Positions 2,325 to 53,663 of a DNA stretch of 64,000 nt are shown here, one piece after another. The stretch lies in contig JBKPTC010000031.1 of assembly GCA_046735355.1 (NCBI GenBank), positions 159-64,158 on the forward strand. The letters are read 5' to 3'. Under the pieces are notes generated by a model. That model did not search any database, was not told where the DNA came from, and was given only the letters and a program-made list of their open reading frames with translations. A program made the translations under genes and the position numbers. Within the stretch, counting starts at the first letter, position 1. Each line of letters opens with the position of its first letter. The DNA is from a bacterium (GTDB lineage Bacteria > Actinomycetota > UBA4738 > HRBIN12).

Positions 2325-2658
2325 TTGACCTTCCCGACAACCTAGGTGTAGGAGGGACGTCGGCAGAGTCGTTTGCGCCCGCGGGGGTGGTTGCGGGAAG
2401 CGACTCATCGCGCTTGCATCGGTCGTCAGTCTGACCGTGCTCGGTCTCCGGACGGGGCAGAGTCTCGCCCAGCCCGGAGCAGGAGCAGACAGCCAGATCG
2501 CGTTTGCCCAGCGGATTGGCGAGGGTGGTCCGACGTTCGTGATCGCGAACCCCGACGGGTCCGACAGGCACGTCGTCCCGATCCGCGCCGAGCCCGACAC
2601 GTTTACGATCCCTGTGTGGTCGCGGCAGCCTGGCTGCCGTGCCTCACTGCCACCATAG
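2325..2658 (+). pseudogene. Truncated TolB/PD40 beta-propeller-like N-terminal fragment: signal peptide plus the first blade only.
   Basis: The frame gives KRLIALASVVSLTVLGLRTGQSLAQPGAGADSQIAFAQRIGEGGPTFVIANPDGSDRHVVPI, then stops after about 110 aa. The IAF..R.G...I..ANPDGS motif is the PD40 repeat start. The only upstream start is TTG 2325. A full PD40 paralogue exists at 38835-39749. Confidence 0.4.
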
Positions 2659-2698
2659 AGGCAATCGATCGACAGGCCGAGCCGCGTCGTATCGTCGG

Positions 2699-3013
2699 CT
2701 AGATAGGGCCGACGACGAACCGCTTGCCGTACCGGCGCGCCAGTGCATCGAGGCATCGGATCGCGTTCTTCAGGCCGTCCGGTGGTCCGTCCGAGAGGAG
2801 GACCGATCCGTCGAGCCGCACCACCTTGACCTCGGGATGCGTCAGCAACTCTTCAGTGGCGGCGACGATCGCGTCGGTGTCTGCCTCGGTCACGGTCTCG
2901 GCCCGCGTGAGGTCGACCCGGACGGTTCCCTCAACTCTGAGGACGTCCCATTGGAAGGCCCCCTGCATATCGAATTGGTACCCACCTTTGGGCGGCCCAA
3001 TGACAGATGACAT
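2699..3013 (-). CDS. Small cytoplasmic protein, possibly STAS-like (anti-sigma-antagonist fold).
   Basis: Only the C-terminal 105 aa of ORF 2699-3523(-) are protein-like: MSSVIGPPKGGYQFDMQGAFQWDVLRVEGTVRVDLTRAE...VKVVRLDGSVLLSDGPPDGLKNAIRCLDALARRYGKRFVVGPI. The upstream part of the ORF is R-rich junk. Confidence 0.35.
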   Translation of the reverse strand: MSSVIGPPKGGYQFDMQGAFQWDVLRVEGTVRVDLTRAETVTEADTDAIVAATEELLTHPEVKVVRLDGSVLLSDGPPDGLKNAIRCLDALARRYGKRFVVGPI

Positions 3014-3229
3014 CCGCGTTCCGGTTACGACCGTCGGACGCTGTTCGCTAGCTCGGGTCAGTTTCGTGCAGGCAGGCCGCGGAAGGGTTGCACACGGAAA
3101 CTGGGCGCGACCGGGAAGGGAGAGCGTCCTCATGCAGGAGTCACGTAGCGAAGCGCGACCACGCGAACGAACGCGGGCAGCGGTCCGTCGAAGACCGTCG
3201 GACGAGCCGCAGTAGCACAGCGGGCCCCC

Positions 3230-3463
3230 GTGATCCTGATCGGCTCGCTCGGCGTCATCGTCGGATCGTTCCTGAATTGGATCGACAGCCGCGACCAGGC
3301 GGGGTCGCCGGCACAGGGCTTTCAGATCTCCGACGGCCGCGTCGCTCTGGATATCGGCGTCGCGCTGCTCGTCGTCGGCATCCTCATAGCCGCGACAGGC
3401 GGGTCGGCACATGGGTTGATGCCGATCCACTCGCGGTCGCGCTTTCGACCGTCGCGCTCGTGA
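3230..3463 (+). CDS. Small membrane protein. A second TM segment continues in the +2 frame to about 3600, so a frameshift is possible.
   Basis: MILIGSLGVIVGSFLNWIDSRDQ...VALDIGVALLVVGILIAATGGSAHG. The adjacent frame reads WVDADPLAVALSTVALVTVVALWVYLGSDQ. Confidence 0.35.
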   Translation: MILIGSLGVIVGSFLNWIDSRDQAGSPAQGFQISDGRVALDIGVALLVVGILIAATGGSAHGLMPIHSRSRFRPSRS

Positions 3464-3728
3464 CCGTTGTGGCGCTGTGGGTCTACCTCGGATCCGACCA
3501 GCGCCCTCCTGATATATCGGCATCTAGTCACCGTGGCTGGGGCACTCAACGTGGCCATGGGCGGTTCCCTGATGGCTCTCCTGCGAAGCGCTTCGGATAG
3601 GGCCACGTGGGACGACGACGCTGAGGGCGATGTCGGTCGGAATCGGCGACTCGCCTGACGATCAAAGCACCGAACGCCGCTTGCGGACGGTGCTAGATTG
3701 CAGGGCCGCGCTGAAGGAGGGAGATCCG

Positions 3729-4436
3729 ATGCGTGTTCGCCTTGCACTCGTCGCCGCGGTTGTAGCGGCCATCCTCGCACCCGGCCCCGCGATTGCTACG
3801 CCGAAGGCCAGTGGCGCCGATTCGGTGCAGCAGCCGACGTGCACGCTGCCGGAGTCTGATGCCGAAGCCCTCGTGATCCTTAGCAACTACTATCCGGGTT
3901 ACTGGTGGGACCACACGCACCTGACGATCGCTGTTCAGGCCTATCCAGGCATCTCGGACGAGTATCGGGAAGCGATCGACGATGCGATCGCCACGTGGGC
4001 CGGTGTTCTCCAGGAGTGCTTCGATGGCCTGATCACCCTGACCCAGGTGGATACTCGGCAGGAAGCCGACATCGTCGTTCACTACGTGCCGCATGCCGGT
4101 GGCGCGGTCTTCTCTGGGTACGCGATCTGTGGTGACCACGGATGTCCCAACATCCTCGTGAGCTCCGAGGCACCGCCGAGCTGGGGACAGGAGCCATATA
4201 GCCCCGAGCTTCTCGGTTGGATCACGCTGCACGAGGTCGGCCACGCTCTCGGCCTCGGCCACGCGACGAACCTGTTGGAAAGCACCGACCTGATGGGGTA
4301 CGGCTGGCCCGATCTCGGTGATCCGGTCCTATCTGATTGCGATGTCGATGCGCTCGCATTCGTGTTCGCTTGGGCACTTGCCGGTGAGGAACCACACCCA
4401 CCGGCTGAGGGTCCGTACGACTGTTCCATCAGCTAG
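3729..4436 (+). CDS. Secreted zinc metalloprotease, metzincin/matrixin-like.
   Basis: RBS aggaggga before ATG 3729. Signal peptide MRVRLALVAAVVAAILAPGPAIATPKA. HEVGHALGLGH matches the HExxHxxGxxH zinc-binding motif. Confidence 0.75.
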   Translation: MRVRLALVAAVVAAILAPGPAIATPKASGADSVQQPTCTLPESDAEALVILSNYYPGYWWDHTHLTIAVQAYPGISDEYREAIDDAIATWAGVLQECFDGLITLTQVDTRQEADIVVHYVPHAGGAVFSGYAICGDHGCPNILVSSEAPPSWGQEPYSPELLGWITLHEVGHALGLGHATNLLESTDLMGYGWPDLGDPVLSDCDVDALAFVFAWALAGEEPHPPAEGPYDCSIS

Positions 4437-4488
4437 GGGAGCGCCTCTTCGGCAGACGCCGTGAGGGCGTGCGAGATCGAACGGACGC

Positions 4489-4520
4489 GGCGGGGCCCGG
4501 CCGACGCCGGCCCCGCCGTC
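4489..4520. terminator. GC-rich imperfect hairpin between the convergent metalloprotease and mgtC genes; a candidate bidirectional terminator.
   Basis: ggcggggcccgg-ccgacg-ccggccccgcc inverted repeat with one bulge and weak flanking T content. Confidence 0.25.
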
Positions 4521-4671
4521 CGTCTTCCGGTGCTGGCCGGCCCGCAGACTAGAGGAGAGGCCACCGGCCGCGCGGCGGTCCCGGGCGCTCGACGTTCGCC
4601 CGGGAACGTCAGACTTCTGGCTCAGGACCGCTGAACAGGAGGGGTCGCATGCAGCCCCACGGCGGGTCCTC

Positions 4672-5343
4672 TTAACCAGAAGTCCTGACCTCGACAACGC
4701 CGTCCAAAGACTGCAAACGCTCAACTAGCCCCTCGACGGAGCGGGAACCCTCAACGTCGAACCGAAGTCCGACGAGGTTCCGATCCGTATCCGAACGAGT
4801 CACATCGAGGTCTGAAATCACGTAGCCGATTGCGGTCGCTTCCGCCAAGACACGTCGCAGCACGCCCTCACGGTCGCGGTAGGATAGGTCGATGGGCGTG
4901 AGTGAACGCCTCGATTGGGGGAGGGCGCGTCCCAGCGGCGTGTAGACATACGCGACGAACAAGTGCGCCACGGTCGCTCCGATCGCGAGCGCGATCAAGC
5001 CAGCTCCAGCGGCCATCCCGACGGCCGCGGTGAGCCAGATCGCGGCAGCGGTGGTAAGGCCTCGCACACCGGCGCGTTTGACGAAGATTAGACCCGCCCC
5101 GATGAATCCGATGCCCGAGACGACCTGTGCGGCGACCCGTGAGGGGTCGAGGTTGACCGTTCCGGCCGATACCACGTCGCTAAAGCCGTACTTGCTGACG
5201 AGGACGAAGACAGCCGCTCCAACGCCGACGAGCGTGTGCGTGCGCAGTCCTGCGCTCTTCTGCCGCAGCTCCCGCTCTACCCCGATCACCGAGGAAAGCG
5301 CCAAGGCCAGGGCGAGGAGAGCGAGCTGGTGAAGCCAACCCAT
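4672..5343 (-). CDS. mgtC: MgtC/SapB family membrane protein.
   Basis: MGWLHQLALLALALALSSVIGVERELRQKSAGLRTHTLVGVGAAVFVLVS...GIGFIGAGLIF is the typical MgtC N-terminal membrane domain. A C-terminal soluble ACT-like tail follows. Confidence 0.85.
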   Translation of the reverse strand: MGWLHQLALLALALALSSVIGVERELRQKSAGLRTHTLVGVGAAVFVLVSKYGFSDVVSAGTVNLDPSRVAAQVVSGIGFIGAGLIFVKRAGVRGLTTAAAIWLTAAVGMAAGAGLIALAIGATVAHLFVAYVYTPLGRALPQSRRSLTPIDLSYRDREGVLRRVLAEATAIGYVISDLDVTRSDTDRNLVGLRFDVEGSRSVEGLVERLQSLDGVVEVRTSG

Positions 5344-5599
5344 CTGCGAAGCCTATCGTCGCACCAGGTGGCAGCGTCGTCGCGTGCCCGAGGGCCGTTA
5401 CGTCCCTGGGGTTGCCCTCGCCGGCGTCATACACCAGAGCCAAAGGGCGATCGACGGCACGTACAAAAGCCCTGACCGCCGATGAGTGACACGACCGCCG
5501 TAAGGGCGGTCACGGATGCGGCGACCCCCAAGACGGCTCGATGCTCGGGCCGCCACACCGCGAGATTGCCCCGGCGATTGCCGGATCAGGATGACCATG

Positions 5600-6027
5600 A
5601 CCGCTCGGGCTATCGCATTGAGGAGGCGATGGATCCACGACCGTGAGGATACCGAGCTCGAGCGCAGATCCCTCAAGGTACGTCCGGTCGCGCCGGATCG
5701 CAGCTCGACATTCCGCGAGTTCATTGGCCGTCACAAGCTCGGCTCGTACCTCTTCGGAGCGTGCGTGATCTCGTGGACAGGTGTCGTGCTGGCCGCAATC
5801 GCGCAGCCTTCCACTTTCGACGCGATACGAGCACCATTCCGATCCTGCTCGCGATGCTTCCCGGTCGGACCCTGTCCGCCCTCGCGGTGACCGCGATCTC
5901 CGACGGGAAAGCGGGGCTGCGGCAGCTGGCGGTCCGGCCCTTGTACTCCGGGACGGGTGACTCATGCACCCCTTTTGTCGTGCCCCGACGATGCCATCTG
6001 AACTCAGTTCGCGCCGTGCCGTGTTGA
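5600..6027 (+). pseudogene. Disrupted membrane-protein gene: two consecutive coding-like frames.
   Basis: Frame A reads MTARAIALRRRWIHDREDTELERRSLKVRPV...YLFGACVISWTGVVLAAIAQPSTF. Frame B continues IPILLAMLPGRTLSALAVTAISDGKAGLRQLAVRPLY. The frame changes near 5815-5835. Confidence 0.25.
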
Positions 6028-6057
6028 GGCGGCGCCCCCGTAGAAAGGAGAGGCGCC

Positions 6058-6498
6058 ATGGATGCAACGTTGCGACGCAGGCGCTCGTCGGCGCACATCG
6101 TTCGGCCAGTTGCCGTCGCAGCAGCCATCGGGGCGATCGTGGAGGCCGGTTTTCAGGCGGCGCTGGCAGTTGGGGCTCCGTTTGGCCGAGCATCGTGGGG
6201 CGGGCAGCCAACCCATCTTGCGACGGACCTTCGCGTGGCGAGCGGCATCGTAGCGTTCGTCTGGCTGTTCGTCGCGGCCGTAATACTGAAGCGCGGCGGG
6301 TTCGACGTGCGAGGAATGTCAACGACGTTGGCGTATCGCGCGACGTGGGTGATCTTCGCGTTCCTTGCGCTCGGGACCGTCATGAACCTCGCCTCCCAAA
6401 GCGCGCTCGAGCGTGCGATCTGGACGCCGTTCACGCTCGTTCTCGCAATCCTTACGTTCGTAATCGCTCGAAGTGAGCAGACTCGGACGCCACGGTAA
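6058..6498 (+). CDS. Hypothetical integral membrane protein (4 TM).
   Basis: Strong RBS aaaggagagg before ATG 6058. Hydrophobic segments VAVAAAIGAIVEAGF, IVAFVWLFVAAVIL, WVIFAFLALGTVM, FTLVLAILTFVIA. Confidence 0.65.
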   Translation: MDATLRRRRSSAHIVRPVAVAAAIGAIVEAGFQAALAVGAPFGRASWGGQPTHLATDLRVASGIVAFVWLFVAAVILKRGGFDVRGMSTTLAYRATWVIFAFLALGTVMNLASQSALERAIWTPFTLVLAILTFVIARSEQTRTPR

Positions 6499-6909
6499 GC
6501 GGGCCAGAGGAGCGATGCGCCTCCTCGATTTCCCGGAAGCGTCGTCACCTCGGCGACCGTACACGACGTGTGAACGCTGTCCCTAGCTCGCGAGCCGAAA
6601 CGGCGGGTGGTCGTCGACGATCCAACTCGTCGAGAATGCGCTTCGCCTTGGCGTGGGCCACCGGCCGCTCGCGCTTGTTGAACCAAAGGGCCGGGAATCG
6701 GCGAGACCTCCGGTTGGTCCGACGGGGCGCAAAGCTATCGACGCTCTCTTGCCGGCCTCAGTCGTCCGGAGGTCTCGTCTCGACCTGATCCTGGCGTCGT
6801 GTAACGCGTCGCGATCGGGTCTCTAGTCCTGCTCGTCATGGGTCCTTGCACCCGCGCTACGGAACCGGCTCAGCGAGAGGCTGACCCAGTTCTGCACGTG
6901 GAGGGCAAC

Positions 6910-7116
6910 ATGACACTAGGGCACAGCGTCGGCCACATGAACATCGCGATCACGGACTTCTCGCCGGTCGTTCAGGCGCCAGTGCGTCGATGCCCGAGGT
7001 GCGACGCCCATCTGTCCGCCCACAACACGGACAAGGTCTGCTATCCCTGTCAGCGAACGGAGATGCGAACGCGATGGGAGAACGGATCCCTGTCGCGCCG
7101 AGGTGCGATCCACTAG
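6910..7116 (+). CDS. Small zinc-ribbon protein (CxxC...CxxC).
   Basis: RBS ggaggg before ATG 6910. MTLGHSVGHMNIAITDFSPVVQAPVRRCPRCDAHLSAHNTDKVCYPCQRTEMRTRWENG. Confidence 0.35.
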   Translation: MTLGHSVGHMNIAITDFSPVVQAPVRRCPRCDAHLSAHNTDKVCYPCQRTEMRTRWENGSLSRRGAIH

Positions 7117-8295
7117 CGTCGGTGCCGCTTGTCGATCCGCGGCTGGACAACCGCGTCGGGCCGCACACGAGCCGCTACATCTGGTTGGACAATCTGCGCG
7201 TCGCGCTAATCGCAGCGGTCATCGTCGCACGTCGCAAGCACGTACGTCATAGACTCCGATTGGTACTACATGGAACGGACCACGGACCGGGTGACGCAGC
7301 TCGTCGTCGGCGTCGTCGTCCTCGTGGGCGGGCTATTCGGCATGGGGCTTCTGTTCCTCGTCGCGGGGCTTCTGACGCCATCTGCGCTCGACCGGAAAGG
7401 GGCCGCTCGGTTCGTCCGTGACAGGGCCGTGCGGCTCGGGATTCCGCTCGTGATCTTCGTCGCCGTCATCGACCCCCTCACCGATTACGTCGGTCATCGT
7501 GGCATGGGCGAAGCAACAGGCTTCGGACAGTACATGCACCTCTGGCTGGCTCGGGATGCGGACGCAGGACCGGCGTGGTTCATCGCCGACCTGCTCGTGT
7601 TCTCAATCGTGTACGCGCTCATCCGCGGAGTTCGACCAGCCACTCGGAGGTCTCGTGAACCGTTCGAACCCCGCCGCCTCCTCGCCGTCGGCGCCCTCAT
7701 CGCGGGCGGTTCCTTCTTGATTCGCATCGTGTGGCCGTTCATGTCCGACACGTTCTTCGGTCTCAACTTGTGGGAGTTCCCGCAGATGATCGGGATGTTC
7801 GCGCTCGGCGTGCTGGCCGCCGAGGCAGGCTGGAATGCGACATCGCTGCCGGTGAACCGGAAGAAAACCGTGGTGCAGGTGGCGATTGCGTCCCTCGTTG
7901 CGTTGCTCTGTTTTGCTGTTCTCGGAGCGTCCGCGGACGATGCCGGTCCGCTCCTGGGCGGCCTTCACATCCAGGCTCTGCCGTTGCCGATCATCGAAGC
8001 CGCCTGGGCTATCTCGATGTCGCTCGTCACCCTGGAGTACTTCCGACGCCGGGCCACCGTTTCGAGTCAGACCCTCGCCGGCGCTTCTCGAGCGTCATAT
8101 GACGCATATCTGCTGCACCCGCCTCTGATCGTCGTCCTCGCCGTCGCGTTGCGGACGTCGGGATTTTCCATTGGAACGAAGTTCGTCCTTGTCAGCATCG
8201 TCGGTGTTTCCTTGGCGTTCGTGATTGGGTGGATCCTGGCTCACGCCCGGAGCGACCACCTTTGGAGTCGCTCTCGAGTCGCTGGTCCGACGTGA
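7071..8295 (+). pseudogene. Acyltransferase family 3 (OatA/OpgC-like) membrane protein, with an apparent 1-nt frameshift near 7236-7245.
   Basis: Frame 1 (from ATG 7071) gives the family N-terminal motif RYIWLDNLRVALIAAVIVA. The next frame continues with HVASTYVIDSDWYYMERTTDRVTQLVVGVVVLVGG and runs to 8295 with about 9 more TM segments. Confidence 0.5.
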
Positions 8296-8389
8296 TGTCG
8301 TGGCGCGTGGCGTCGGATGGTCGTACCGAGCGAGCCCTTCCGCGCGTGGCTCGATGATCAGTGAAGCGCCGGAACCGCTGTCGCGGAGC

Positions 8390-8911
8390 TCACGTTGACG
8401 CGCTGGGCCGAACGAAGCTCGACGCGAGCTCAAGCGCTCTGCCGAACGACTCCACGAACCGCCGCTGCTGACCCGACCCCGGGAACGGAACCCGCTCGTT
8501 AACGACCGGGAGACGCGCCCGCTTCAGCGGCCAATAGGCCGCGTCGAACACCGTCGCCTTGATGACGATGATCGCGCGAGGATCGAGCTCCTGACACCGG
8601 ATGACGAGATCCGCGGCAAGGGACTCCAGCGACGCGCGACCGACAGGGTTGGGGCTCAAGTCGATCAAGAAAACGCCCCGGTCGCGCAGCTTCCCGAGAA
8701 GCGCGGCCTTGTTCGATCGAGTCGGCTCGTCGTTCAGTACTCCCCGTGCGACGTACCGGAACAGCGAGTCCTGCTCGGTCACGTTGTCGAAGTAGAAGTA
8801 GCGGTCGAGTGCGCTGGGTGGACCCTCGGCAACGAGGAGCAGATCGATCTCGGCCGGGCGGTATCGGGTCGCTGCTTCTTCTCGCCGTCGCCTGGCGTCA
8901 GCTCCGTCCAT
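8390..8911 (-). CDS. Conserved-looking hypothetical protein (173 aa); family not recognised.
   Basis: Non-repetitive, protein-like ORF: EIDLLLVAEGPPSALDRYFYFDNVTEQDSLFRYVARGVL...GVFLIDLSPNPVGRASLESLAADLVIRCQELDPRAIIVIKATVFDAAYWPLKRARLPVVNE. Confidence 0.5.
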   Translation of the reverse strand: MDGADARRRREEAATRYRPAEIDLLLVAEGPPSALDRYFYFDNVTEQDSLFRYVARGVLNDEPTRSNKAALLGKLRDRGVFLIDLSPNPVGRASLESLAADLVIRCQELDPRAIIVIKATVFDAAYWPLKRARLPVVNERVPFPGSGQQRRFVESFGRALELASSFVRPSAST

Positions 8912-9103
8912 CTCGCCCTGCCCTCTGCTCTGTCCTCGGCAACGTCTGGCGACCCCGACGCGGTCGCCTCATCACGGATACGTCTGGCGCCTCGATGAGG
9001 CACACGAATCCATCACGAAGCAGGACGGGCGCGAAGACGCGCTGGACCCCAGGTGCGATCAAGAAGAGGAGACGCCGTGGAGGACATCCTCGGCTGAGCG
9101 CGT

Positions 9104-9122
9104 GGCCCAAGATGGCCCCAAG
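9104..9122. repeat. Second copy of the GGCCC(C)AAG-at-GGCCCCAAG motif, spanning the ATG of the zinc-ribbon gene.
   Basis: ggcccaagatggccccaag preceded by cgcgtgg; compare 1184-1203. Confidence 0.6.
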
Positions 9123-9417
9123 AGCCGCGCTCGCCATTCTCGCCGATGAGTGGACGATCAAGGAACGACCCAGCGACGACCTCGTCGCTGCCCCGCGGGG
9201 GGTAAAGGATTGGCTGCTCCGGCAGCCCGCTGTCCTTCGTTCCAGTGACACGATCGTGATAGCGGCGGCCGGCTTCAAGGCTCAAACGTGGACGACGAGC
9301 CCCGGGACCGACTCGTGCGCATGCGGGGGTCAATGGGTCCGAAGGACACGCAGGAGCGACGGACACGAGTTCTTCGGGTGCTCCCGCCTCCCCGCATGCC
9401 GACGCACAAAAGCCTGA
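9112..9417 (+). CDS. Small protein (101 aa) with a C-terminal topoisomerase-type C4 zinc ribbon.
   Basis: MAPRAALAILADEWTIKERPSDD...DSCACGGQWVRRTRRSDGHEFFGCSRLPACRRTKA. The C-x-C...(F)FGCS..P.C pattern matches the zf-C4_Topoisom ribbon. The start lies inside the 20-bp repeat. Confidence 0.5.
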   Translation: MAPRAALAILADEWTIKERPSDDLVAAPRGVKDWLLRQPAVLRSSDTIVIAAAGFKAQTWTTSPGTDSCACGGQWVRRTRRSDGHEFFGCSRLPACRRTKA

Positions 9418-9718
9418 GCTTCGGATCACGCTTCGGCTGCCAACCATCTTGTACCTGGCCGGAGAGCTGGACATGGCCTCGGCCGACGAGCTCGTGAACG
9501 ACGTACTGGCTCGTGTGGACGGACAGCGCGACGTCGTGCTGGACCTGTCGGATCTGGAATTCGTCGACTCGACCGGCATGCGGGCCTTCTTGACGGTCGC
9601 CAAGTCAGTCGAGCCGCGCCCGGTCGTGCTTCGCGACCCACGACCTCATGTCGAGTATGTGCTCGATATCGTTCGGATCGAGACGTTCGGATTGCGGATA
9701 CAGCGGCCAGACGAGTGA
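9396..9718 (+). CDS. STAS-domain anti-sigma-factor antagonist, with an apparent frameshift near 9420 or an atypical start.
   Basis: C-terminal frame: ELRITLRLPTILYLAGELDMASADELVNDVLARVDGQRDVVLDLSDLEFVDSTGMRAFLTVAKSV, a canonical STAS fold. No ATG, GTG or TTG exists in this frame upstream of TTG 9449, although the conserved beta-1 strand is encoded upstream. ATG 9396 (MPTHKSLSF) is in the -1 frame. Confidence 0.5.
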
Positions 9719-11102: not shown

Positions 11103-11882
11103 CTAGGGAGATCTGGAAGGGTTCGACGCGTCGAGCGCCTCCTCCGGGCGCAGCTCGACCGTCTTGAGGAGCCCCCCGCGGCCCCAAAACCAGTGCGTGT
11201 CGTAGGTTTCGAGGAGACGCCGCTCGTCCGCGACGTGGAGGTAGATGAAGTAGCCGCGTGTCTCCGTCGCGACGGTCAGGACGATCCCGCGCGCACCGCC
11301 TCCCTCACCGCAGTACTCGAACCATGCTTCGTTGCCTTGGAAACCGTTGCCGCTGCCTCCGCCCCCACCCCGCGTACACATACCGGGCGGGAAATCGGGC
11401 AGGTTTGTCCAGTCCATTGGCGACTTGCCGCCGAGGGGCGCGGAGACCAGGGCGATGTAGAGATCATCCCGAAGCTGCGGGTCGAAGATGACGTCGACGT
11501 CGGACGCGTCGAAGGCGAGTTCGCCGTGACCCCAGGGCTCGGTCGCCGCCCGCGTCCGCCAGCCGGACGGGTAGCCGATGGAGAGACCGTTTAGCGGCGA
11601 GTCGAACCGCTCCGTGAACGAAGACGGCTGCGTGACGGGCGACGATGCCACCGGCGACGGAGACGCCGCGGGACCGATCACCGCTCCGCGTTCGGATGCG
11701 AGCAGCCGGACTAGCCCGACCGCCGCGAAGGCGAACACCGCGATGCCGAGGACGCCTGCCGCAACCCGCTGGTTCCGGCGCTTGTGATCGCGGCGGCGAA
11801 GTAGGGCGTCGTAGGGGTGGTCGGGCGCATCGATGCTCATCGCCGCCCGCTTGGCCCTGTCGAGGATCTCCTGGTCATTCAT
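11103..11882 (-). CDS. Putative anti-sigma factor: single-pass membrane protein with an extracytoplasmic domain.
   Basis: Start overlaps the sigma gene stop by 8 bp. Cytoplasmic N-terminus, TM segment VAAGVLGIAVFAFAAVGLV, then a Gly-rich extracellular domain. Confidence 0.5.
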   Translation of the reverse strand: MNDQEILDRAKRAAMSIDAPDHPYDALLRRRDHKRRNQRVAAGVLGIAVFAFAAVGLVRLLASERGAVIGPAASPSPVASSPVTQPSSFTERFDSPLNGLSIGYPSGWRTRAATEPWGHGELAFDASDVDVIFDPQLRDDLYIALVSAPLGGKSPMDWTNLPDFPPGMCTRGGGGGSGNGFQGNEAWFEYCGEGGGARGIVLTVATETRGYFIYLHVADERRLLETYDTHWFWGRGGLLKTVELRPEEALDASNPSRSP

Positions 11883-12399
11883 CGCCGGTCTCCCTTGCGA
11901 AATGCGCTCTCGCCTGAGCCACGAGGGATCGGACGGTAGACTCCTTCACACCGAGCACGGCTCCCGCGTCGTGATAGGCGAATCCCTGGATACCTGTGAG
12001 GACGATCGCTTCGCGTTGACGCATGGTCAGTCCTAGCAGGAGACGCACGGCGCTCTCGCGTTCAGCGAGCTGTTCGAACGGGTCGCTCCCGGCTCGACCT
12101 GGCGCGAGCACGCGCTTGGCGGCGAGCCGTGATCGACGGTAGAGGCTGCGGTAGGCGTTTAGGGCCGTGCGATACAGGTAGCCCTCGAGGTCCGCCACGC
12201 CGTCCAGCTGGTCCCATCGCTCGAGCATCTTGAGGAACGCTGCCTGAGCCACGTCCTCCGCCTCCTCCTTGCTCCCCGAGAGAAGGAGCAGCGACCTGAA
12301 GAGCTGGTCCCATTCGGCGGCGAAGAACGCCTCGAACGAGGTCTCCTCGGCGTCCTCTGCATCGTGGGTCAACGGGATCTGCCTTGGCTGGGTTTCCAT
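11875..12399 (-). CDS. ECF (sigma-70 family) RNA polymerase sigma factor.
   Basis: FEAFFAAEWDQLFRSLLLLSGSKEEAEDVAQAAFLKMLERWDQL matches region 2. TMRQREAIVLTGIQGFAYHDAGAVLGVKESTVRSLVAQAR matches region 4. RBS ggagtg before ATG 12399. Confidence 0.8.
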   Translation of the reverse strand: METQPRQIPLTHDAEDAEETSFEAFFAAEWDQLFRSLLLLSGSKEEAEDVAQAAFLKMLERWDQLDGVADLEGYLYRTALNAYRSLYRRSRLAAKRVLAPGRAGSDPFEQLAERESAVRLLLGLTMRQREAIVLTGIQGFAYHDAGAVLGVKESTVRSLVAQARAHFARETGDE

Positions 12400-12430
12400 C
12401 ACTCCATGGACGCTCGAGCGACACCTCATG

Positions 12431-38488: not shown

Positions 38489-38595
38489 TGATGGCCACCG
38501 CTGTCCGCTTACCTTGTACGCCAGCGGTTATGTGCTGGGTCCGTCGAGTCTGGACGAGACCGGTCCGATCAGCGACGCAAAGCCGCTGGTGGAGG

Positions 38596-38667
38596 TGCCC
38601 CCGGCAGGAATCGAACCTGCGCACGCGGTTTAGGAAACCGCTGCTCTATCCACTGAGCTACGAGGGC
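38596..38667 (-). tRNA. tRNA-Arg (anticodon CCT).
   Basis: Reverse complement GCCCTCG-TA-GCTC-AGTGGATA-GAGC-A-GCGGT-TTCCTAA-ACCGC-GTGC-GCAGG-TTCGATT-CCTGC-CGGGGGC-A folds into a canonical cloverleaf. The 7-bp acceptor has one G-U pair. T-loop TTCGATT. Anticodon loop T-T-CCT-A-A. Confidence 0.85.
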
Positions 38668-41113: not shown

Positions 41114-41767
41114 TCAGCCCGCGCTGACGAACGGGGCCGGATCGAAGATCGCCGTCTGCGCGACGAGATCGCCCGGGCCGCATTCCGCGCTCGAGCCGGT
41201 TTCGCCTATCACGTGGAGGTACAACGTTCGACCCGAGACCGAGAACGAATACGTGATCGTGCAGCCGTAGCCCTTCGCCTGAACGGTATGCGGTCCCGTT
41301 ACGGTGAAGCTCCCGCTCCAGCCCGCCTCCCGCTTGCCCGTGTCGCTCTCCGCCGTCTGGAACCAGAATCCGTCCTGCACCACGAGGCCCTGCCGGATCC
41401 AGCGGTCGAACCTCAGGCCCGGACCGAAGTAGTAGCGAGCCGCCTGCCGACGCGAGAAGCCGGCCTCGCGCAACGTCGACTCGATCGTCGAGCGCGTGAT
41501 CGGATGTGTCCAGTAGACGCCGTCCGGGATCGTCGCGACGGCCTCGCGCGACGGCGTTGGTCCCGTCGCCGCGGCCGACCGCCCGCGAGGCAGCGCGGAC
41601 AACCCGGCGGCTAGGCCGCCGATGCCGACGGCGAGCGCGACGACCGCCGTTCCGATCCGGCGGCGCGCGCGACGGCGCGTCCCCCGGTCGAGCGTCCGTT
41701 GGAGCGCGTCGGGCGGAAGCTCGAAGTGCTCGGAGCGCCGTTCGAGCCGCTCGCGCAGATCACTCAT
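41114..41767 (-). CDS. Putative anti-sigma factor (single TM, extracytoplasmic C-terminal domain).
   Basis: ATG 41767 is coupled to the sigma gene stop (atgagtga). MSDLRERLERRSEHFELPPDALQR, then TM segment IGTAVVALAVGIGGLAAGL. Confidence 0.5.
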   Translation of the reverse strand: MSDLRERLERRSEHFELPPDALQRTLDRGTRRRARRRIGTAVVALAVGIGGLAAGLSALPRGRSAAATGPTPSREAVATIPDGVYWTHPITRSTIESTLREAGFSRRQAARYYFGPGLRFDRWIRQGLVVQDGFWFQTAESDTGKREAGWSGSFTVTGPHTVQAKGYGCTITYSFSVSGRTLYLHVIGETGSSAECGPGDLVAQTAIFDPAPFVSAG

Positions 41768-42246
41768 CGATCGATCCGATCGTCTCGCGCATCGCCGCGC
41801 GCGCCTGCGACGCAAGCACGCGAACGGTGACGTCCCGGATGCCCATCATCGAAGCGGCCTCGCCCGACGTGCAGCCGAGGACGTCGAGGAGGACGAGCGC
41901 GGCTCGTTGCCGAGGCGTCAGATCGGCCAGCGCGCGGTCGATCGAATATCGGTCATCGACGACACCGAACGCGTCGGGCGAGAACTCGCTCGACGTCGAT
42001 GCGAGGCCCGCGACGGCACGGAAGTGGCGTGCGAGCTTCCGCGTCCTCTTCTTCCACCGGTTGAACGCCGCTCGATACAGATAGCCGACGGGATCGTCCA
42101 TCACGGAGACGCGGTCCCAGCGCTCTAGGAGCGCGAGGAACGCGTCCTGGACCATCTCCTCGGCCTCCTGCCGGTTGCCCGTGATGACGCACATGCGACG
42201 GTACAGGGTGGGCGCGTGGTCCTCGAAGAACGTCTCGAACGCCATC
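41760..42246 (-). CDS. ECF sigma-70 family sigma factor, paralogous to 11875-12399.
   Basis: FETFFEDHAPTLYRRMCVITGNRQEAEEMVQDAFLALLERW matches region 2. LTPRQRAALVLLDVLGCTSGEAASMMGIRDVTVRVLASQAR matches region 4. Confidence 0.75.
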
Positions 42247-42310
42247 ACAGACGCGCCGTCGGTCGCGCGGTCGCGCGTCGCGGCGACGAGCCTCAGGCGG
42301 GCCGACATCC

Positions 42311-42340
42311 AGTAGAGAACCCCCCTCGAGGTGGAACCGT
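42311..42340 (-). promoter_or_regulatory. Candidate ECF-type promoter (GGTTCC-N15-CTCTAC) upstream of the second ECF sigma gene.
   Basis: Minus-strand reading cGGTTCCacctcgaggggggttCTCTACtgg. The same -10-like hexamer and spacing occur at 12431-12460. Confidence 0.3.
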
Positions 42341-45004: not shown

Positions 45005-45945
45005 TCACCTCGAGACGACGGGAGCCTCCCGCGGTTCCGAGGACGGGCGTCCGATGCGCGGCCATCCGTCCCGCCACTCGACCGGATCGAGCAGCATGAC
45101 GCGCGGGCCGAGCCGCCTCGAGCGCATCGCGTGGTAAAGCATCCAGTCGGTGCCCGCGTCGTCGCGGACGATCGCGCAGTGGCCGGGCGCGATCCACCGA
45201 CCGTCCGTCGATTCGAGGATCGGGTTTCCGGCGAACCGTTCGAAGTCCTCGAGCGGCGACGCGGCGCGGGACACCGCGACGGCGTAGTGCGGGTCGGCGT
45301 ACATGCAACACACGTCGCCGGAGGTGAACAGGTAGATCCGGCCGTCGCGCTCGAGCATCCAGGGGCCCTCGACCACGCTGTCGTAGCCCGTGCCCTCCTC
45401 GCCGATCGGGAGCAGCACCGCGCGACCGTCGCCGGCGGGGCGCACCCCGTCTCGATCGATCGGCGCGACCTTGACCTGGTTCTCCTCGCTCCAGACGAAG
45501 AACCGCTCGCCGCGCGCACGCGTGAGCACGTTGGCGTCGATGCGTTCGTGCTCGCCGTCGATCAGGTGAGCCGGCTCGGGCTCGAACGGTCCCTCCGGTC
45601 GATCGGCGACGGCGAGGCCGAGCTGCATCTTTTGCGTGGCTCGATCCTCGATCGACAGATACAGCACGTATCGGCCGCGGACGAGCTCGATGTGCGGCGC
45701 CCACGACGCTCGTCTGCCCCACGGCGGCAGTCGCGGAAGTGCGTCGCCGACGAACGTCCACTCGACGAGGTTCTCGGAGCGAAGGACGGGCACCCAGACG
45801 CGGCGCCGGCGGTAGTACGTCATCGTCGTGTAGCACCAGAACACGCCGTTCGGATCGCGGACCACGGACGGGTCGGGTGCTACGTGGTCGAAGACCGGGT
45901 TCGTGTACGTTCGCCCGCCTCGCGCCGAAGCCGCGACTACTGGTT
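45005..45945 (-). CDS. Glycoside hydrolase family 43. No canonical start codon sits upstream of the conserved N-terminus.
   Basis: TYTNPVFDHVAPDPSVVRDPNGVFWCYTT...SENLVEWTFVGDAL...WAPHIELVRGRYVLYLS...SVVEGPWMLERDGRIYLFTS. The in-frame region upstream of NPVF has no ATG, GTG or TTG before the upstream gene's stop. Confidence 0.65.
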
Positions 45946-47079
45946 CGAGCTCCAGCGGAGCAGTGCGCCGACGCCGTCCGTGAGACCGGTCCCGGCGGGC
46001 ACCAGCCGGATGCCGGCCGCCGTGCCGATCGCCGCGCGGATCACCGCGTCGATGCGACGGACCTCGATCGGCCGCTCGACGCCGAGCGCCTCGAGGTCCT
46101 CGCGCCGAGCCGCGACGGGTACGGCCTCGGACCCGACCCACACGGTCGCGCCGTCCTCGAGGTCCTCGTGCAGCAGGAGCACCGCGACCTGCGACGACGA
46201 CAGCGCGGTCAGCATCGCGTCCGCGCCCTCGGTCGCCAGGTCGCGCTGCCCGCTCTCCTCGCGGAACCGCTCGACGATCGCGCGCGTCTCGCCCTCGACG
46301 AACCGGTCGAGGACCTCCTGGGCCTCGGCCGGCATCATCGGCCCCGAGCCCTCCCACGGGCGCTCGCCGGGAACGATCTCGACCGGCAGATCGAACTCGG
46401 ACGGCCACGAGTCCTGGATCAGCGTCACGGCGCGGACGTCGCCGGCGAGCATCACGAGACGCGCCTCGATCCGACCGGCGAGCCGCGCGATCGCCTGCGC
46501 AACGTCCTGCGCGTTCTCCTGCCACGTGTTCTCGGCGCGTTCCTGGTACCGGCGCTGCGACCAGCCGCCCGGCCCGACCTTGCTGATCGTCGAGTCGTCG
46601 CCCTTCACCTCGCGCTCGACGTCAGGCGTGTCCTCTCCCGCGCGCTCGAAGCCGTACAGGGTCGCTCCGGTTCGATCGGCGAGCGCGACGACGAACGGGA
46701 CCGACGTCTGCCGCCATCGCAACACCTGCTCCAGACGAGGGAGCGGCTCCCAGAACGCCTCATCGGTCGGTCCGGGGAGCGAGCCGTGCTCGACGTGCCG
46801 GACCCCCGAGGCGTCGGCGATCACCACGAGGCCGTCGCCGGACAGATGGGCATCCGGGATGACCGGGTCGACCGCGGCGAGCACGTCCTCGGGGACGTCG
46901 CAGTTGTCGGCGAGGTCCGAGCGCAGCGTGCGCCATCGCTGGTCGCTCCGCTGTTGGGCGTTCTCGATGCCGCTCTCGGTCGTCATCACGACGGTGAGGA
47001 ACGGACCCTCGCCCGAGGCGAGGTCCGACAGATCGGCCGGCGCGACGGCGCCGGCGGGCAGAGCTTCGGAGGTCTCCAT
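45937..47079 (-). CDS. Bacterial eRF1/Pelota-like (release-factor-like) domain protein, with GGW in place of the GGQ motif.
   Basis: N-terminal GPFLTVVMTTESGIENAQQR. Central SKVGPGGWSQRRYQERAEN aligns with eRF1 domain-2 HGRGGQSALRFARLR. Divergent from the MFS gene. Confidence 0.6.
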   Translation of the reverse strand: METSEALPAGAVAPADLSDLASGEGPFLTVVMTTESGIENAQQRSDQRWRTLRSDLADNCDVPEDVLAAVDPVIPDAHLSGDGLVVIADASGVRHVEHGSLPGPTDEAFWEPLPRLEQVLRWRQTSVPFVVALADRTGATLYGFERAGEDTPDVEREVKGDDSTISKVGPGGWSQRRYQERAENTWQENAQDVAQAIARLAGRIEARLVMLAGDVRAVTLIQDSWPSEFDLPVEIVPGERPWEGSGPMMPAEAQEVLDRFVEGETRAIVERFREESGQRDLATEGADAMLTALSSSQVAVLLLHEDLEDGATVWVGSEAVPVAARREDLEALGVERPIEVRRIDAVIRAAIGTAAGIRLVPAGTGLTDGVGALLRWSSNQ

Positions 47080-47192
47080 GCGGCACCCGTTCCCGAAGAG
47101 GGCCGCGGCGAACCGCGCCTCGCGTGCGACGGGCCACGATCGCATGGGTCGTCCGACCGCGCGCAGCGCGACGCGGCTGCGATGCTGTCGCT

Positions 47193-50535: not shown

Positions 50536-51471
50536 CTACGAAGCTCGGATCGGCGCGCCCGACCGGGCTCCGGGCAACCGCTGCTCGAGCGTCAGGACGT
50601 CCGCGAACCGATCGCCATCGCGCTCGATCCGCGCGAGCGCCTCGTCCGGGCCGGGCAGCAGCTGTGCCACCTCGCCGGCGGCCGCTCGTTCGACGTCCTC
50701 CCACGCGACCGGCATCGAGACCGTCGGCACCGGCGTGGCGCGCAGCGAGTACGGCGCGACGGTCGACCGGAACGCGTCGTTCTGGAGCCAGTCGAGCAGG
50801 ATCTTGCCGTGCCGGATCGACCGGCTCTGCCGGTCCACGACGTCGTCGCGGGCGCGCACGAGGAACGAGGCGAACGTTCGCGCGAAGGCCTTCGTCTCCT
50901 CGAACGTGTGCGGCGTGTTCAACGGAACGACGACGTGGAGGCCCTTCGACCCGGAGCTCTTCGCGAACGCGCGCAGCCCCGCCGCCTCGAGGAGCTCGCG
51001 CACCTGGCTTCCGACGGCGCAGGCATCGGCCAGCGTGGCCGGCTCGCCCGGATCCAGATCGAACACGACCACCGGCGCGAGCGCCGGCTCCTCGGCGCGG
51101 AACAGGAACGGATGGAGCTCGATCGTTCCCTGGTTGCCCACCCACAGCAACGTCGCGGCGTCGTCGACGACGCAGTGCCGATGGTGGCGTCCGTCCGCGC
51201 CGTCGTACTCGTACAGCGGCATCCAGTCCGGTGCGCCGCGGCACTCGTTCTGCCACCAGCCCTTCGCCTCGACGCCCTCCGGATACCGCCACATCGTGAG
51301 CGGCCGGCGGCGAAGATGGGGCAGGAGCACGGGGGCAACGCGGGCGTAGTACTCGAGCATCGCGCCCTTCGTGAACCCGGTCGACGGCCACAGGACGCGG
51401 TCCAGATGCGTCAGCCGGACGACACGTCCGTCGACCTCGACATGCCGGGCTGCCTCGGCTCCCGCGCTCAT
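50536..51471 (-). CDS. LigD-type primase-polymerase (NHEJ polymerase domain) as a stand-alone ORF.
   Basis: VDGRVVRLTHLDRVLWPSTGFTKGAMLEYY...LLWVGNQGTIELHPF...VVFDLDPGEP...SSGSKGLHVVVPL shows the LigD Pol catalytic motifs. Confidence 0.85.
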   Translation of the reverse strand: MSAGAEAARHVEVDGRVVRLTHLDRVLWPSTGFTKGAMLEYYARVAPVLLPHLRRRPLTMWRYPEGVEAKGWWQNECRGAPDWMPLYEYDGADGRHHRHCVVDDAATLLWVGNQGTIELHPFLFRAEEPALAPVVVFDLDPGEPATLADACAVGSQVRELLEAAGLRAFAKSSGSKGLHVVVPLNTPHTFEETKAFARTFASFLVRARDDVVDRQSRSIRHGKILLDWLQNDAFRSTVAPYSLRATPVPTVSMPVAWEDVERAAAGEVAQLLPGPDEALARIERDGDRFADVLTLEQRLPGARSGAPIRAS

Positions 51472-52571
51472 CCGTTCGCGGCCGCGACTTCGACCGCGAC
51501 CGTGGCCGCCGAACCCGCCTCACCGGAGGCGAGCTGGTCGAGCGTGCATGATCGCGCGTCCCGGTCGGGGCGCCAGCGGACCAGGCGAGCCGGATGGCGG
51601 AACCGCGCCCCGTCGACCTGATCGAACGCGACCTCGACGACGCGCTCGGGCCGGAGCGGCACCCAGTCGTGCTCCATCTCGGGGGTCCACCTCGCGGCCG
51701 ATCCCTTCAGGCGCCCCGTCGGACTTCTGCCGATGAGGAAGCCGTTCGCCCACGGATGGCCCCGGAGCGGCACACGGAGCGGCGCGAGGTCCTCGACGAG
51801 GTCGACCCGTTCACGGTCGGAGAACGCCTGCACGACACCGACGTGGTGCAACGCACCGCGGTCGTCGTACAACGCGAGCAGCAGCGAGCTGAGCGCCGGT
51901 GTATCGACGTACGGCCGGTAGCCCGCGACGACGCAGTCGATCGTGTGCAGCGTCTTGACCTTCATCATCGCGCGCTTGCCGGGCCGATACGTGAGCCCGA
52001 CCTCCTTGGCGATGACGCCGTCGATGCCCTCGCCGGGCGGCCGCTCGAGCCAGCCGCGAGCCACTGCGGGATCGGTCGTCGCGGGCGTCAGGGCGACCCT
52101 CGGCGGCGCCGACCGCAGCAGCGCCTCGAGGCGGGCGCGCCGTTCCGCGAAGCCTCGCTCCCGGAGGTCCTCGCCGCCGACGGCGAGCACGTCGAACGCG
52201 ACGAACGTGGCCGGCGTCTCGTCGGCGAGGCGACGCACACGCGACGCCGCGGGATGCAGTCGAGCCATCAAGGCGTCGAAGTCGAAGCCTCCGTCGCGCC
52301 GCACCACGATCTCGCCGTCGAGCACGACCGACGAGGGATCCATCGAGCGGAGCGCCTCGACCAGCTCCGGGAAGTACCGCGAGAGCGGCCGGTCGTGCCT
52401 GCTCCGGAGATCGACGTCGTCGCGCTCGCAGAAGGCGAGGCACCGGAAGCCGTCCCACTTCGGCTCGAACAGATGCTCGCCCTCGGCCGGGAGCTCGCGC
52501 GTCAGGCGGGCGAGCATCGGCCGAACGGGAGGACGCACGACGGAGGCGGCGGCGGTTCCGACCGAGCGCAT
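51468..52571 (-). CDS. ATP-dependent DNA ligase (LigD ligase domain) as a separate ORF, 4-bp overlap with the Pol ORF.
   Basis: ATG at the complement of 52569-52571. FEPKWDGFRCLAF is the KxDG adenylation motif. LDGEIVV, FVAFDVL and GIDGVIAKE are motifs III to V. The long ORF 51468-54956 is artefactual beyond 52571. Confidence 0.85.
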   Translation of the reverse strand: MRSVGTAAASVVRPPVRPMLARLTRELPAEGEHLFEPKWDGFRCLAFCERDDVDLRSRHDRPLSRYFPELVEALRSMDPSSVVLDGEIVVRRDGGFDFDALMARLHPAASRVRRLADETPATFVAFDVLAVGGEDLRERGFAERRARLEALLRSAPPRVALTPATTDPAVARGWLERPPGEGIDGVIAKEVGLTYRPGKRAMMKVKTLHTIDCVVAGYRPYVDTPALSSLLLALYDDRGALHHVGVVQAFSDRERVDLVEDLAPLRVPLRGHPWANGFLIGRSPTGRLKGSAARWTPEMEHDWVPLRPERVVEVAFDQVDGARFRHPARLVRWRPDRDARSCTLDQLASGEAGSAATVAVEVAAANG

Positions 52572-52610
52572 CAGCACTGTGTACCCGATGTCCTCCGATA
52601 CCCTCGACCC

Positions 52611-53663
52611 ATGACGGTCTTCGACCTCTCGTTCGACGCACTCTCCGAGCGACTCGCCTCGTGGGGCGAGCCGCCGTTCCGAGCGAGGCAGGTGCACGAC
52701 GGCATCTGGAAGCGCGGCAAGAGGTTCGAGGAGATGAGCGACGTTCCGGGTCCGCTCCGTGCGCGTCTGGCCGAGGAGCTCCCGCTCGGCCTCGAGGTGG
52801 TCGAGGAGCGGACCGCCGACGACGGCTCGACACGCAAGGCGCTCCTTCGTCTCGGCGGCCGTCACCTCGTCGAGGTGGTGCTGATGGGCTATCCGGACCG
52901 AGTGACCGCGTGCGTCTCGTCGCAGTCGGGCTGCGCGATGGGATGCGGCTTCTGCGCGACCGGACAGATGGGGCTTCGAAACAACCTGACGGCCGGCGAG
53001 ATCGCCGTCCAGGCTTGGTGGGCACGACGCGAGGCCAACGCGCTTCCGGCGTCGACGCCGAGACGTCTCACAAACGTCGTGTTCATGGGGATGGGCGAGC
53101 CGCTCGCCAACGAGCGGAACACCTTCGCGTCGCTCGAGCGACTGACGCAGCCCGACGGGTTCGGCCTCGGCGACCGCCACATCACGGTGTCGACCGTCGG
53201 CGTCGCACCCGCGATCCACCGGCTCGGCGAGCGATTCCCGCAGATCGGCCTCGCCGTGAGCCTGCACGCGGCCGACGACGACCTGCGGAACCGGCTCGTG
53301 CCGGTCAATCGGTTGTGGCCCCTCGCCGAGCTCGAGGCCGCCGTCCTTGCCTGGCGCCGAGCGACGCGCCGGCGGCCATCGATCGAGTGGGCGATGATCG
53401 GCCGGACGAACGACGGTGACGACCAGGCGCGCAAGCTGTCCGCGATCGCGCACCACCTCGGCGCGCACGTCAACCTCATCCCGCTCAACCCGACGCCCGG
53501 CTGGCCGACCCGGCCGAGCCCTCGCGAGCGCATCGAGCGGTTCGCGGCCGTGCTCCGGCGCTCCGGCGTCAACGTGACGGTCCGCGACACGCGCGGCCGC
53601 GAGATCGAGGCCGCCTGCGGTCAGCTGCGGTCCGAGCACGACCGCGCCTCGGCCATCGTCTGA
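52611..53663 (+). CDS. rlmN: 23S rRNA/tRNA adenine C2-methyltransferase RlmN (radical SAM).
   Basis: CVSSQSGCAMGCGFCATG radical-SAM cluster. MGMGEPLAN. C-terminal ACGQL catalytic Cys. Confidence 0.9.
   Translation: MTVFDLSFDALSERLASWGEPPFRARQVHDGIWKRGKRFEEMSDVPGPLRARLAEELPLGLEVVEERTADDGSTRKALLRLGGRHLVEVVLMGYPDRVTACVSSQSGCAMGCGFCATGQMGLRNNLTAGEIAVQAWWARREANALPASTPRRLTNVVFMGMGEPLANERNTFASLERLTQPDGFGLGDRHITVSTVGVAPAIHRLGERFPQIGLAVSLHAADDDLRNRLVPVNRLWPLAELEAAVLAWRRATRRRPSIEWAMIGRTNDGDDQARKLSAIAHHLGAHVNLIPLNPTPGWPTRPSPRERIERFAAVLRRSGVNVTVRDTRGREIEAACGQLRSEHDRASAIV

Follow-up and report, generated by a model that had tools for sequence, protein, structure and literature searches.

What has happened to the genes at the left end of this actinobacterial contig: are they decaying in the organism itself, or does the assembly carry indel errors that happen to concentrate there? 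The question concerns a patch of broken genes of about 9 kb (at ~1.06-9.72 kb) within a 64,000-nucleotide stretch of high-GC DNA from contig JBKPTC010000031.1, which is referred to below, at its full length, as the window. The patch holds at least five, and probably seven, remnants of frameshifted or truncated genes, which are scattered among intact small genes. Five candidates had been noticed in the initial annotation, four of which could be substantiated with homologues or profiles, while the list itself proved incomplete, as a NERD-domain remnant and a weak AbiV-like one had to be added. Frame breaks and truncations relative to homologues are restricted to the patch, and we infer from them that, with good probability, its accessory genes are under real mutational decay, the lesions being present in the organism and selection on these genes being relaxed.

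Lesions of the individual genes

The broken genes and gene fragments of the patch, given as coordinates in the window, strand and evidence, are as follows.

1064-1700, + strand: candidate remnant of an AbiV-like (HEPN) gene, to the left of the region first annotated (weak Pfam match in two frames)
2329-2658, + strand: short PD40-like open frame that begins like a signal peptide and contains a single PD40-like motif (open reading frame, coding signal)
3132-3658, + strand: pseudogene of a small membrane protein with four transmembrane (TM) segments (homologue P0071, frameshift-aware alignment)
5633-6027, + strand: remnant (~100 codons) of the N-terminal part of a gene for a CPBP/Rce1-like membrane protease (HMMER, tblastn, frameshift-aware alignment)
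7074-8295, + strand: acyltransferase-3 gene with an apparent 2-nt deletion at 7227-7230 (PF01757, frameshift-aware alignment, homologues)
9004-9417, + strand: 5'-truncated gene for a NERD plus Top1-type zinc-ribbon protein, of which the C-terminal half is left (homologues P0090-P0100, Pfam)
9263-9718, + strand: STAS-domain open frame without a usable start (Pfam, start-codon scan, structure alignment)

The acyltransferase-3 gene is indeed split across two frames, and after their joining the product matches PF01757 over positions 2-325 of 326, with 109 bits against a gathering cut-off of 31. The shift, which had been placed near 7240, was located at 7227 by the frameshift-aware protein-to-DNA alignment, with no further lesion over 412 codons. 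The closest relative, P0002, with 75% identity and the same PF01757 domain, is continuous across the junction in a single frame (...RFVWLDNLRVALIAGVIVAHVASTYVIDSDWYYMERT), and P0003-P0005 are likewise single-frame. The DNA at 7221-7239 reads ATC GTC GCA C GTC GCA AGC, where the Ala codon GCA (7227-7229) shares two bases with the His codon CAC (7228-7230); the simplest history would be the loss of one CA from GCACAC (GCA-CAC to GCAC), a 2-nt loss. The lesion is thus that of a dinucleotide outside any homopolymer. It interrupts RVALIAAVIVA-H, the R/K-X10-H motif of the first transmembrane helix (TMH1), both key residues of which are essential in OafA (PMC7448272). The motif does not lie in one translatable frame, the R...A part being read in the frame of 7221-7229 and the His codon in the next. 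The largest remaining open reading frame (ORF), of 341 aa and without TMH1, starts at ATG 7270, which is the first start of the 3' frame and lies downstream of the His; because the 3' ORF begins only there, the His is in neither translatable product. It is this 3' ORF from ATG 7270 that is represented by the public gene call P0001 (341 aa). The search of JGI proteins gave no protein more than 58% identical to the window acyltransferase. As to the relative P0002, it is 505 aa long, compared with ~360-400 aa for the next family members retrieved (P0003-P0005), and its C-terminal tail of ~105 residues is without counterpart in the window; the tail may have arisen by fusion or, in the genome of P0002, through loss of the stop codon.

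The small membrane protein that had also been described as split does show frame breaks relative to the single-frame homologue P0071, but it is not the two-TM protein with one shift and an end at 3600 that was originally seen: it has four TM segments and four shifts, and the gene ends at 3658. P0071, found on 14 JGI contigs, has 228 aa and four hydrophobic segments. The window copy has 68% nucleotide identity to it over 523 positions, and the full-length alignment requires frame changes near 3171, 3223, 3395 and 3523, upon which 122 of 181 aa are identical; a fifth frame change is placed by the frameshift-aware alignment upstream of the likely start ATG 3132. The genomic context of the window copy differs from that of P0071.

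The membrane protein at 5600-6027, reported as split across frames, was confirmed as such and identified as CPBP/Rce1-like, with a shift near 5798-5801 and a possible second one near 5929 by frameshift-aware alignment. The full HMMER search gave 18 matches, among which several proteins of 271-295 aa align as one stretch over the junction, and phmmer E-values of 2.8e-8 to 6e-4 were obtained against P0074, P0082 and P0085, each in one alignment that runs across it. By tblastn, residues 13-55 of P0074 correspond to 5663-5797 of the window (frame 2) and residues 63-98 to 5821-5928 (frame 1). In the homologues the Rce1-like/CPBP domain, PF02517, extends over about residues 125-245, and beyond residue ~100 they have no tblastn match anywhere in the window; the Pfam scan of the remnant gave no match, and the catalytic region of PF02517, where the Glu-Glu and His motifs lie, is absent. 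Because nothing in the window matches the PF02517 part, the frameshift is accompanied by a truncation: the first third is kept, while the 3' two-thirds, ~190 codons including the catalytic domain, are gone. Its best short homologue, the metagenome protein P0073 (117 aa), itself looks frameshifted or truncated, with an arginine-rich, out-of-frame-looking sequence after ...LPGPTVSA, and other genomes may likewise be losing genes of this type.

Truncation at the opposite end is found in the gene with the NERD domain and the Top1-type zinc ribbon. In the homologues P0090-P0100, which are 214-255 aa long, similarity to the window begins only at residue 110-174 (convincing from ~154, weak from ~117), and the NERD domain (PF08378) occupies residues 56-159 in P0090. 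The window retains the zinc ribbon but not the NERD core, with ~115-150 codons gone; upstream of 9014 the frameshift-aware alignment of the NERD homologues is at noise level, and the place of the 5' half is filled by an intact 173-aa ORF of the opposite strand.

The STAS frame that follows has its domain in good order by profile, with 53.2 bits to STAS PF01740 (cut-off 22.6) and 53.7 bits to STAS_2 PF13466 (cut-off 29.2), the Pfam STAS alignment beginning at LRITL. The frame is open from 9263 and its first ATG, GTG or TTG is TTG 9449, with only ATC and CTG upstream. In the alignment to the SpoIIAA and RsbV structures TTG 9449 falls at about SpoIIAA residue 16, inside beta-2, and a product from it would be devoid of beta-1 and half of beta-2, an incomplete fold. 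The start-codon scan and the structure alignment thus agree with the earlier observation that the conserved beta-1 strand has no in-frame start and that ATG 9396 is in a different frame. An A4 run lies at 9408-9411 and the stop TGA of the upstream gene at 9415-9417; with one more A the N-terminus would read MPTHKKPELRITLRLPTILYLAGELD... and be a normal one for a STAS protein, and an N-terminus such as MPTHKKPELRITL... in the STAS gene of a relative is what a 1-nt loss in the A run predicts. In the search of 5.8 billion proteins no close orthologue was found, the sole match being a 35%-identical multidomain protein with E=5.6.

The two leftmost candidates are less certain. The short frame at 2329-2658 is open, looks like a signal peptide at its beginning, as was first described, and has a modest coding signal; its first canonical start is GTG 2437, already within the hydrophobic core, and the cupin gene on one side and the end of the convergent gene (2699) on the other leave it only ~110 codons of space. 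The PD40/TolB label did not hold up: the resemblance is by eye, to an IAF...DGS...P.WS pattern, and no PD40/TolB match was given by Pfam/NCBIfam (E up to 1), the PDB (E up to 10), plasmid tblastn (E up to 1) or two word-indexed protein searches, one of them of 5.8 billion proteins. The frame at 2329-2658 is plausibly a gene fragment and its assignment to the PD40 family is unproven. Upstream, a strong Shine-Dalgarno-like AGGAGG is seen at 2350-2355, followed by an out-of-frame TTG (2373) and a run of five G (G5, 2383-2387). Speculatively, the removal of one G would yield MRPRGGCGKRLIALASVV..., a normal signal peptide, and would make this a start-proximal frameshift; the frame hypothetically repaired in this way, from TTG 2373 through the G5 run into the PD40-like ORF, gave no family match. 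The convergent gene, a 104-aa ORF at 2699-3013 (- strand), has a good coding signal and no family match; mechanically its ORF reaches 3523, with only the 3' 300 nt being coding-like. For the AbiV-like candidate, the ORF 1064-1414 matches PF18728 HEPN_AbiV at positions 8-46 of 155 (E=0.008), and upon joining to the next frame the match grows to positions 8-82 of 155 (E=4e-4), with 20.9 bits, below the cut-off of 27.1 bits.

Decay, consensus error or recoding

In the course of events proposed here, selection on the dispensable genes of the patch would have relaxed, and small indels and larger deletions would then have inactivated them one by one. The acyltransferase-3 gene would carry one recent lesion, the 2-nt loss at a CA dinucleotide that takes the catalytic His out of any translatable product, and the four-TM gene would be an older pseudogene in which four indels have accumulated; deletion would have removed large parts of the genes for the CPBP-like and NERD proteins and probably of the PD40-like and AbiV-like genes as well, and the STAS gene would have lost its start. 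The genes missing large parts number at least two (CPBP-like, NERD) and probably four, with the PD40-like and AbiV-like ones being less certain. Decay is favoured because no base-calling or consensus indel could account for missing segments 100-200 codons long; the window as a whole lacks the PF02517 domain as well as the greater part of NERD. Furthermore, four lesions fall in one gene of 0.53 kb, and the chance that, of about seven small lesions over ~8 kb, at least four hit one gene of that size is below 1% by our own binomial estimate; such clustering is expected when dead genes go on collecting mutations. Among the 20 genes tested in the rest of the window none has a split Pfam match, and coverage is near end-to-end for several, such as GH43 (1-288/288), AKR (1-289/291) and LigD Prim-Pol (1-252/254), while within the patch ~5.5 kb of neighbouring ORFs have zero lesions and full Pfam domain coverage. 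Systematic homopolymer error is unlikely, because the 68 homopolymers of at least 5 nt at 13.4-64 kb are accompanied by no split genes among those examined. The large truncations and gene-specific lesions thus support, of the two explanations that had been offered at the outset, decaying accessory DNA over concentrated indel errors, and the comparison with homologues, which had been suggested for finding intact single-frame versions, yielded them for the acyltransferase (P0002), the four-TM protein (P0071) and the CPBP-like protein (P0074), with no conserved split.

Several observations weigh on the other side. The window sequence rests on a single assembly, the contig being apparently from a metagenome-assembled genome (MAG), and the window proteins are singletons in the cluster look-up. 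Short homopolymers are typical sites of long-read consensus errors, and three of the inferred shifts lie at or next to such runs (G5 at 2383-2387, G3-C5 at 3223-3229, A4 at 9408-9411); a strain-variable accessory region of lower coverage could also have a locally worse consensus. The restored frames are 67-69% identical to homologues, and those of the acyltransferase and four-TM genes contain no stop codons, so their lesions are either recent or artefactual; for the acyltransferase and STAS genes one small correction each suffices. Single-base homopolymer lesions, such as that at the STAS start, could therefore be consensus errors. Extended to the whole patch, the error explanation would have all the genes intact in the organism and the breaks produced in a metagenome assembly, by local misassembly or indels in the consensus, where coverage is low or strains vary. 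This is unlikely, since errors are unable to remove the NERD core or the ~190 codons that the CPBP-like gene lacks, and they would have spared the adjacent intact genes and, for all its homopolymers, the remaining ~50 kb of the window. In addition, the 2-nt loss in the acyltransferase gene lies outside a homopolymer, and four breaks in 0.53 kb would imply a local error rate far above anything nearby. A further point against a decaying accessory region is that no tRNA, integrase, insertion sequence (IS) element or flanking repeat marks island borders: the tRNA, Rfam and repeat scans gave nothing near the patch and no significant flanking repeats, and no integrase or transposase domains are found among the ORFs scanned, by which a genomic island or mobile element cannot be delimited here.

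It is highly improbable that the genes are instead functional, whether through programmed frameshifting, through non-canonical initiation of the STAS and PD40-like ORFs at ATC or CTG, or as working truncated products. In-frame near-cognate codons do occur upstream in both (STAS: ATC 9425, CTG 9437, ATC 9446; PD40-like: ATC 2407, CTG 2431), and the 341-aa acyltransferase ORF is long and publicly called as a gene. However, the frame breaks are not conserved, as P0002, P0003-P0005, P0071 and P0074 are single-frame at the corresponding positions; four alternating shifts in one small gene are without precedent as recoding, no slippery heptamer is apparent around 7221-7239, the break in the acyltransferase gene takes the essential His from both possible products, and initiation of the STAS protein at TTG 9449 deletes beta-1 and half of beta-2. 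Programmed frameshifting was rejected on the grounds of the single-frame homologues and of the loss of essential motifs through the lesions. The most far-fetched of the readings would see in the patch what is left of an earlier defence or stress island, to which the NERD nuclease and the AbiV-like HEPN pieces belonged, with the STAS and truncated acyltransferase ORFs still expressed in new roles via non-canonical starts or internal initiation; in a weaker variant the breaks at homopolymers (G5 at 2383, A4 at 9408) would serve as on/off switches.

Setting of the patch and the rest of the window

The decaying patch differs from most of the contig in composition, with 64-66% G+C as against 70-75% over most of the remainder, and the G+C content is 64-69% across the first 13 kb of the window. 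According to the frame plot of third-position G+C (GC3) and the codon-usage score, the coding segments at ~1.1-9.7 kb are short and weak, and from 13.4 kb on they are replaced by dense, long, high-scoring ORFs of up to 1261 codons. It is from this composition, the weak codon bias and the gene content (small membrane proteins, defence-type fragments and orphan genes without close relatives) that the patch appears to be accessory. The scan of GTDB species representatives gave a single related locus, of 54% identity, in an Actinomycetota MAG (L001), and no gene order is shared with the window at the loci carrying P0071 (L002-L010) or P0005 (L011).

The following intact genes provide the context.

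1869-2240, + strand: cupin gene (PF07883 Cupin_2, E=1e-13)
3630-4436, + strand: gene for a secreted M10-type metallopeptidase (PF00413; HEVGHALGLGH motif in the translation)
4672-5343, - strand: MgtC-ACT gene (PF02308 profile positions 1-119/121, E=9e-39)
8390-8911, - strand: 173-aa ORF of unassigned family (coding score 39; no Pfam/NCBIfam match)

The other intact genes of the patch encode two small membrane or zinc-ribbon proteins, and a beta-lactamase-like gene (profile positions 11-311/329) and a gene for an extracytoplasmic function (ECF) sigma factor are likewise intact among the neighbours.

Farther along the window, the sole tRNA, tRNA-Arg(CCT) at 38594-38667 (- strand), is located in a stretch of locally lower G+C (37-40 kb), far from the patch. 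The two ECF sigma-factor genes, at 11103-12429 and 41117-42317 (- strand), are each followed by a gene, of 259 aa in one case and at least 214 aa in the other, that has no Pfam match and possibly encodes an anti-sigma factor. A bacterial archaeo-eukaryotic release-factor-like domain of an uncommon family (baeRF family 2 / acVLRF1) is encoded at 45940-47121 (- strand), and at 50548-52883 (- strand) a gene with a LigD primase-polymerase domain adjoins a separate ATP-dependent DNA ligase gene, as a pair of the non-homologous end joining (NHEJ) type.

Comparison with known systems

The value of these results is mainly for annotation, in that the patch loci are to be flagged as pseudogenes or remnants and P0001 is not to be taken as a functional protein. 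They also capture, on a small scale, gene loss in an uncultured actinobacterium, ranging from one fresh lesion through multi-hit pseudogenes to deletion stumps, and raise no new biological question: the patch is ordinary gene decay in dispensable DNA, with no new mechanism.

Like the acyltransferase-3 proteins (membrane O-acyltransferases of the OafA/OafB/OpgC type), the joined window sequence spans the whole domain and has R-X10-H in TMH1, while, unlike in them, the Arg and the His are in different frames and there is no product with the full motif. The STAS frame has DSTG at the place of the phosphorylated DSSG of SpoIIAA, as befits the anti-sigma-factor antagonists of the SpoIIAA/RsbV type; however, it is without a start before beta-1/beta-2, and no partner kinase or anti-sigma gene is seen adjacent. 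Similarly, the two N-terminal helices of the CPBP/Rce1-like intramembrane proteases (PF02517) are 42-56% identical to the window in the tblastn segments, whereas the window piece is frameshifted and devoid of the PF02517 catalytic region.

With the gene splits caused by long-read indel errors, as they are generally known, the patch has in common adjacent ORFs in different frames and some breaks at homopolymers, and it differs from them by breaks that are confined to a few genes, are combined with large truncations and are absent from ~50 kb of neighbouring sequence. Pseudogenes are known to accumulate in dispensable or horizontally acquired regions, for instance in decaying genomic islands and in the pseudogene-rich genomes of Mycobacterium leprae and Salmonella Typhi. 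Unlike these, the patch comprises ~9 kb of one contig, the remaining window being intact, with no sign of genome-wide reduction, and it was found to have no mobility genes or island borders. What it shares with the known decaying regions is the occurrence of single- and multi-lesion genes and deletion stumps among intact genes, a composition unlike that of the core, and lesions that pile up in dead genes.

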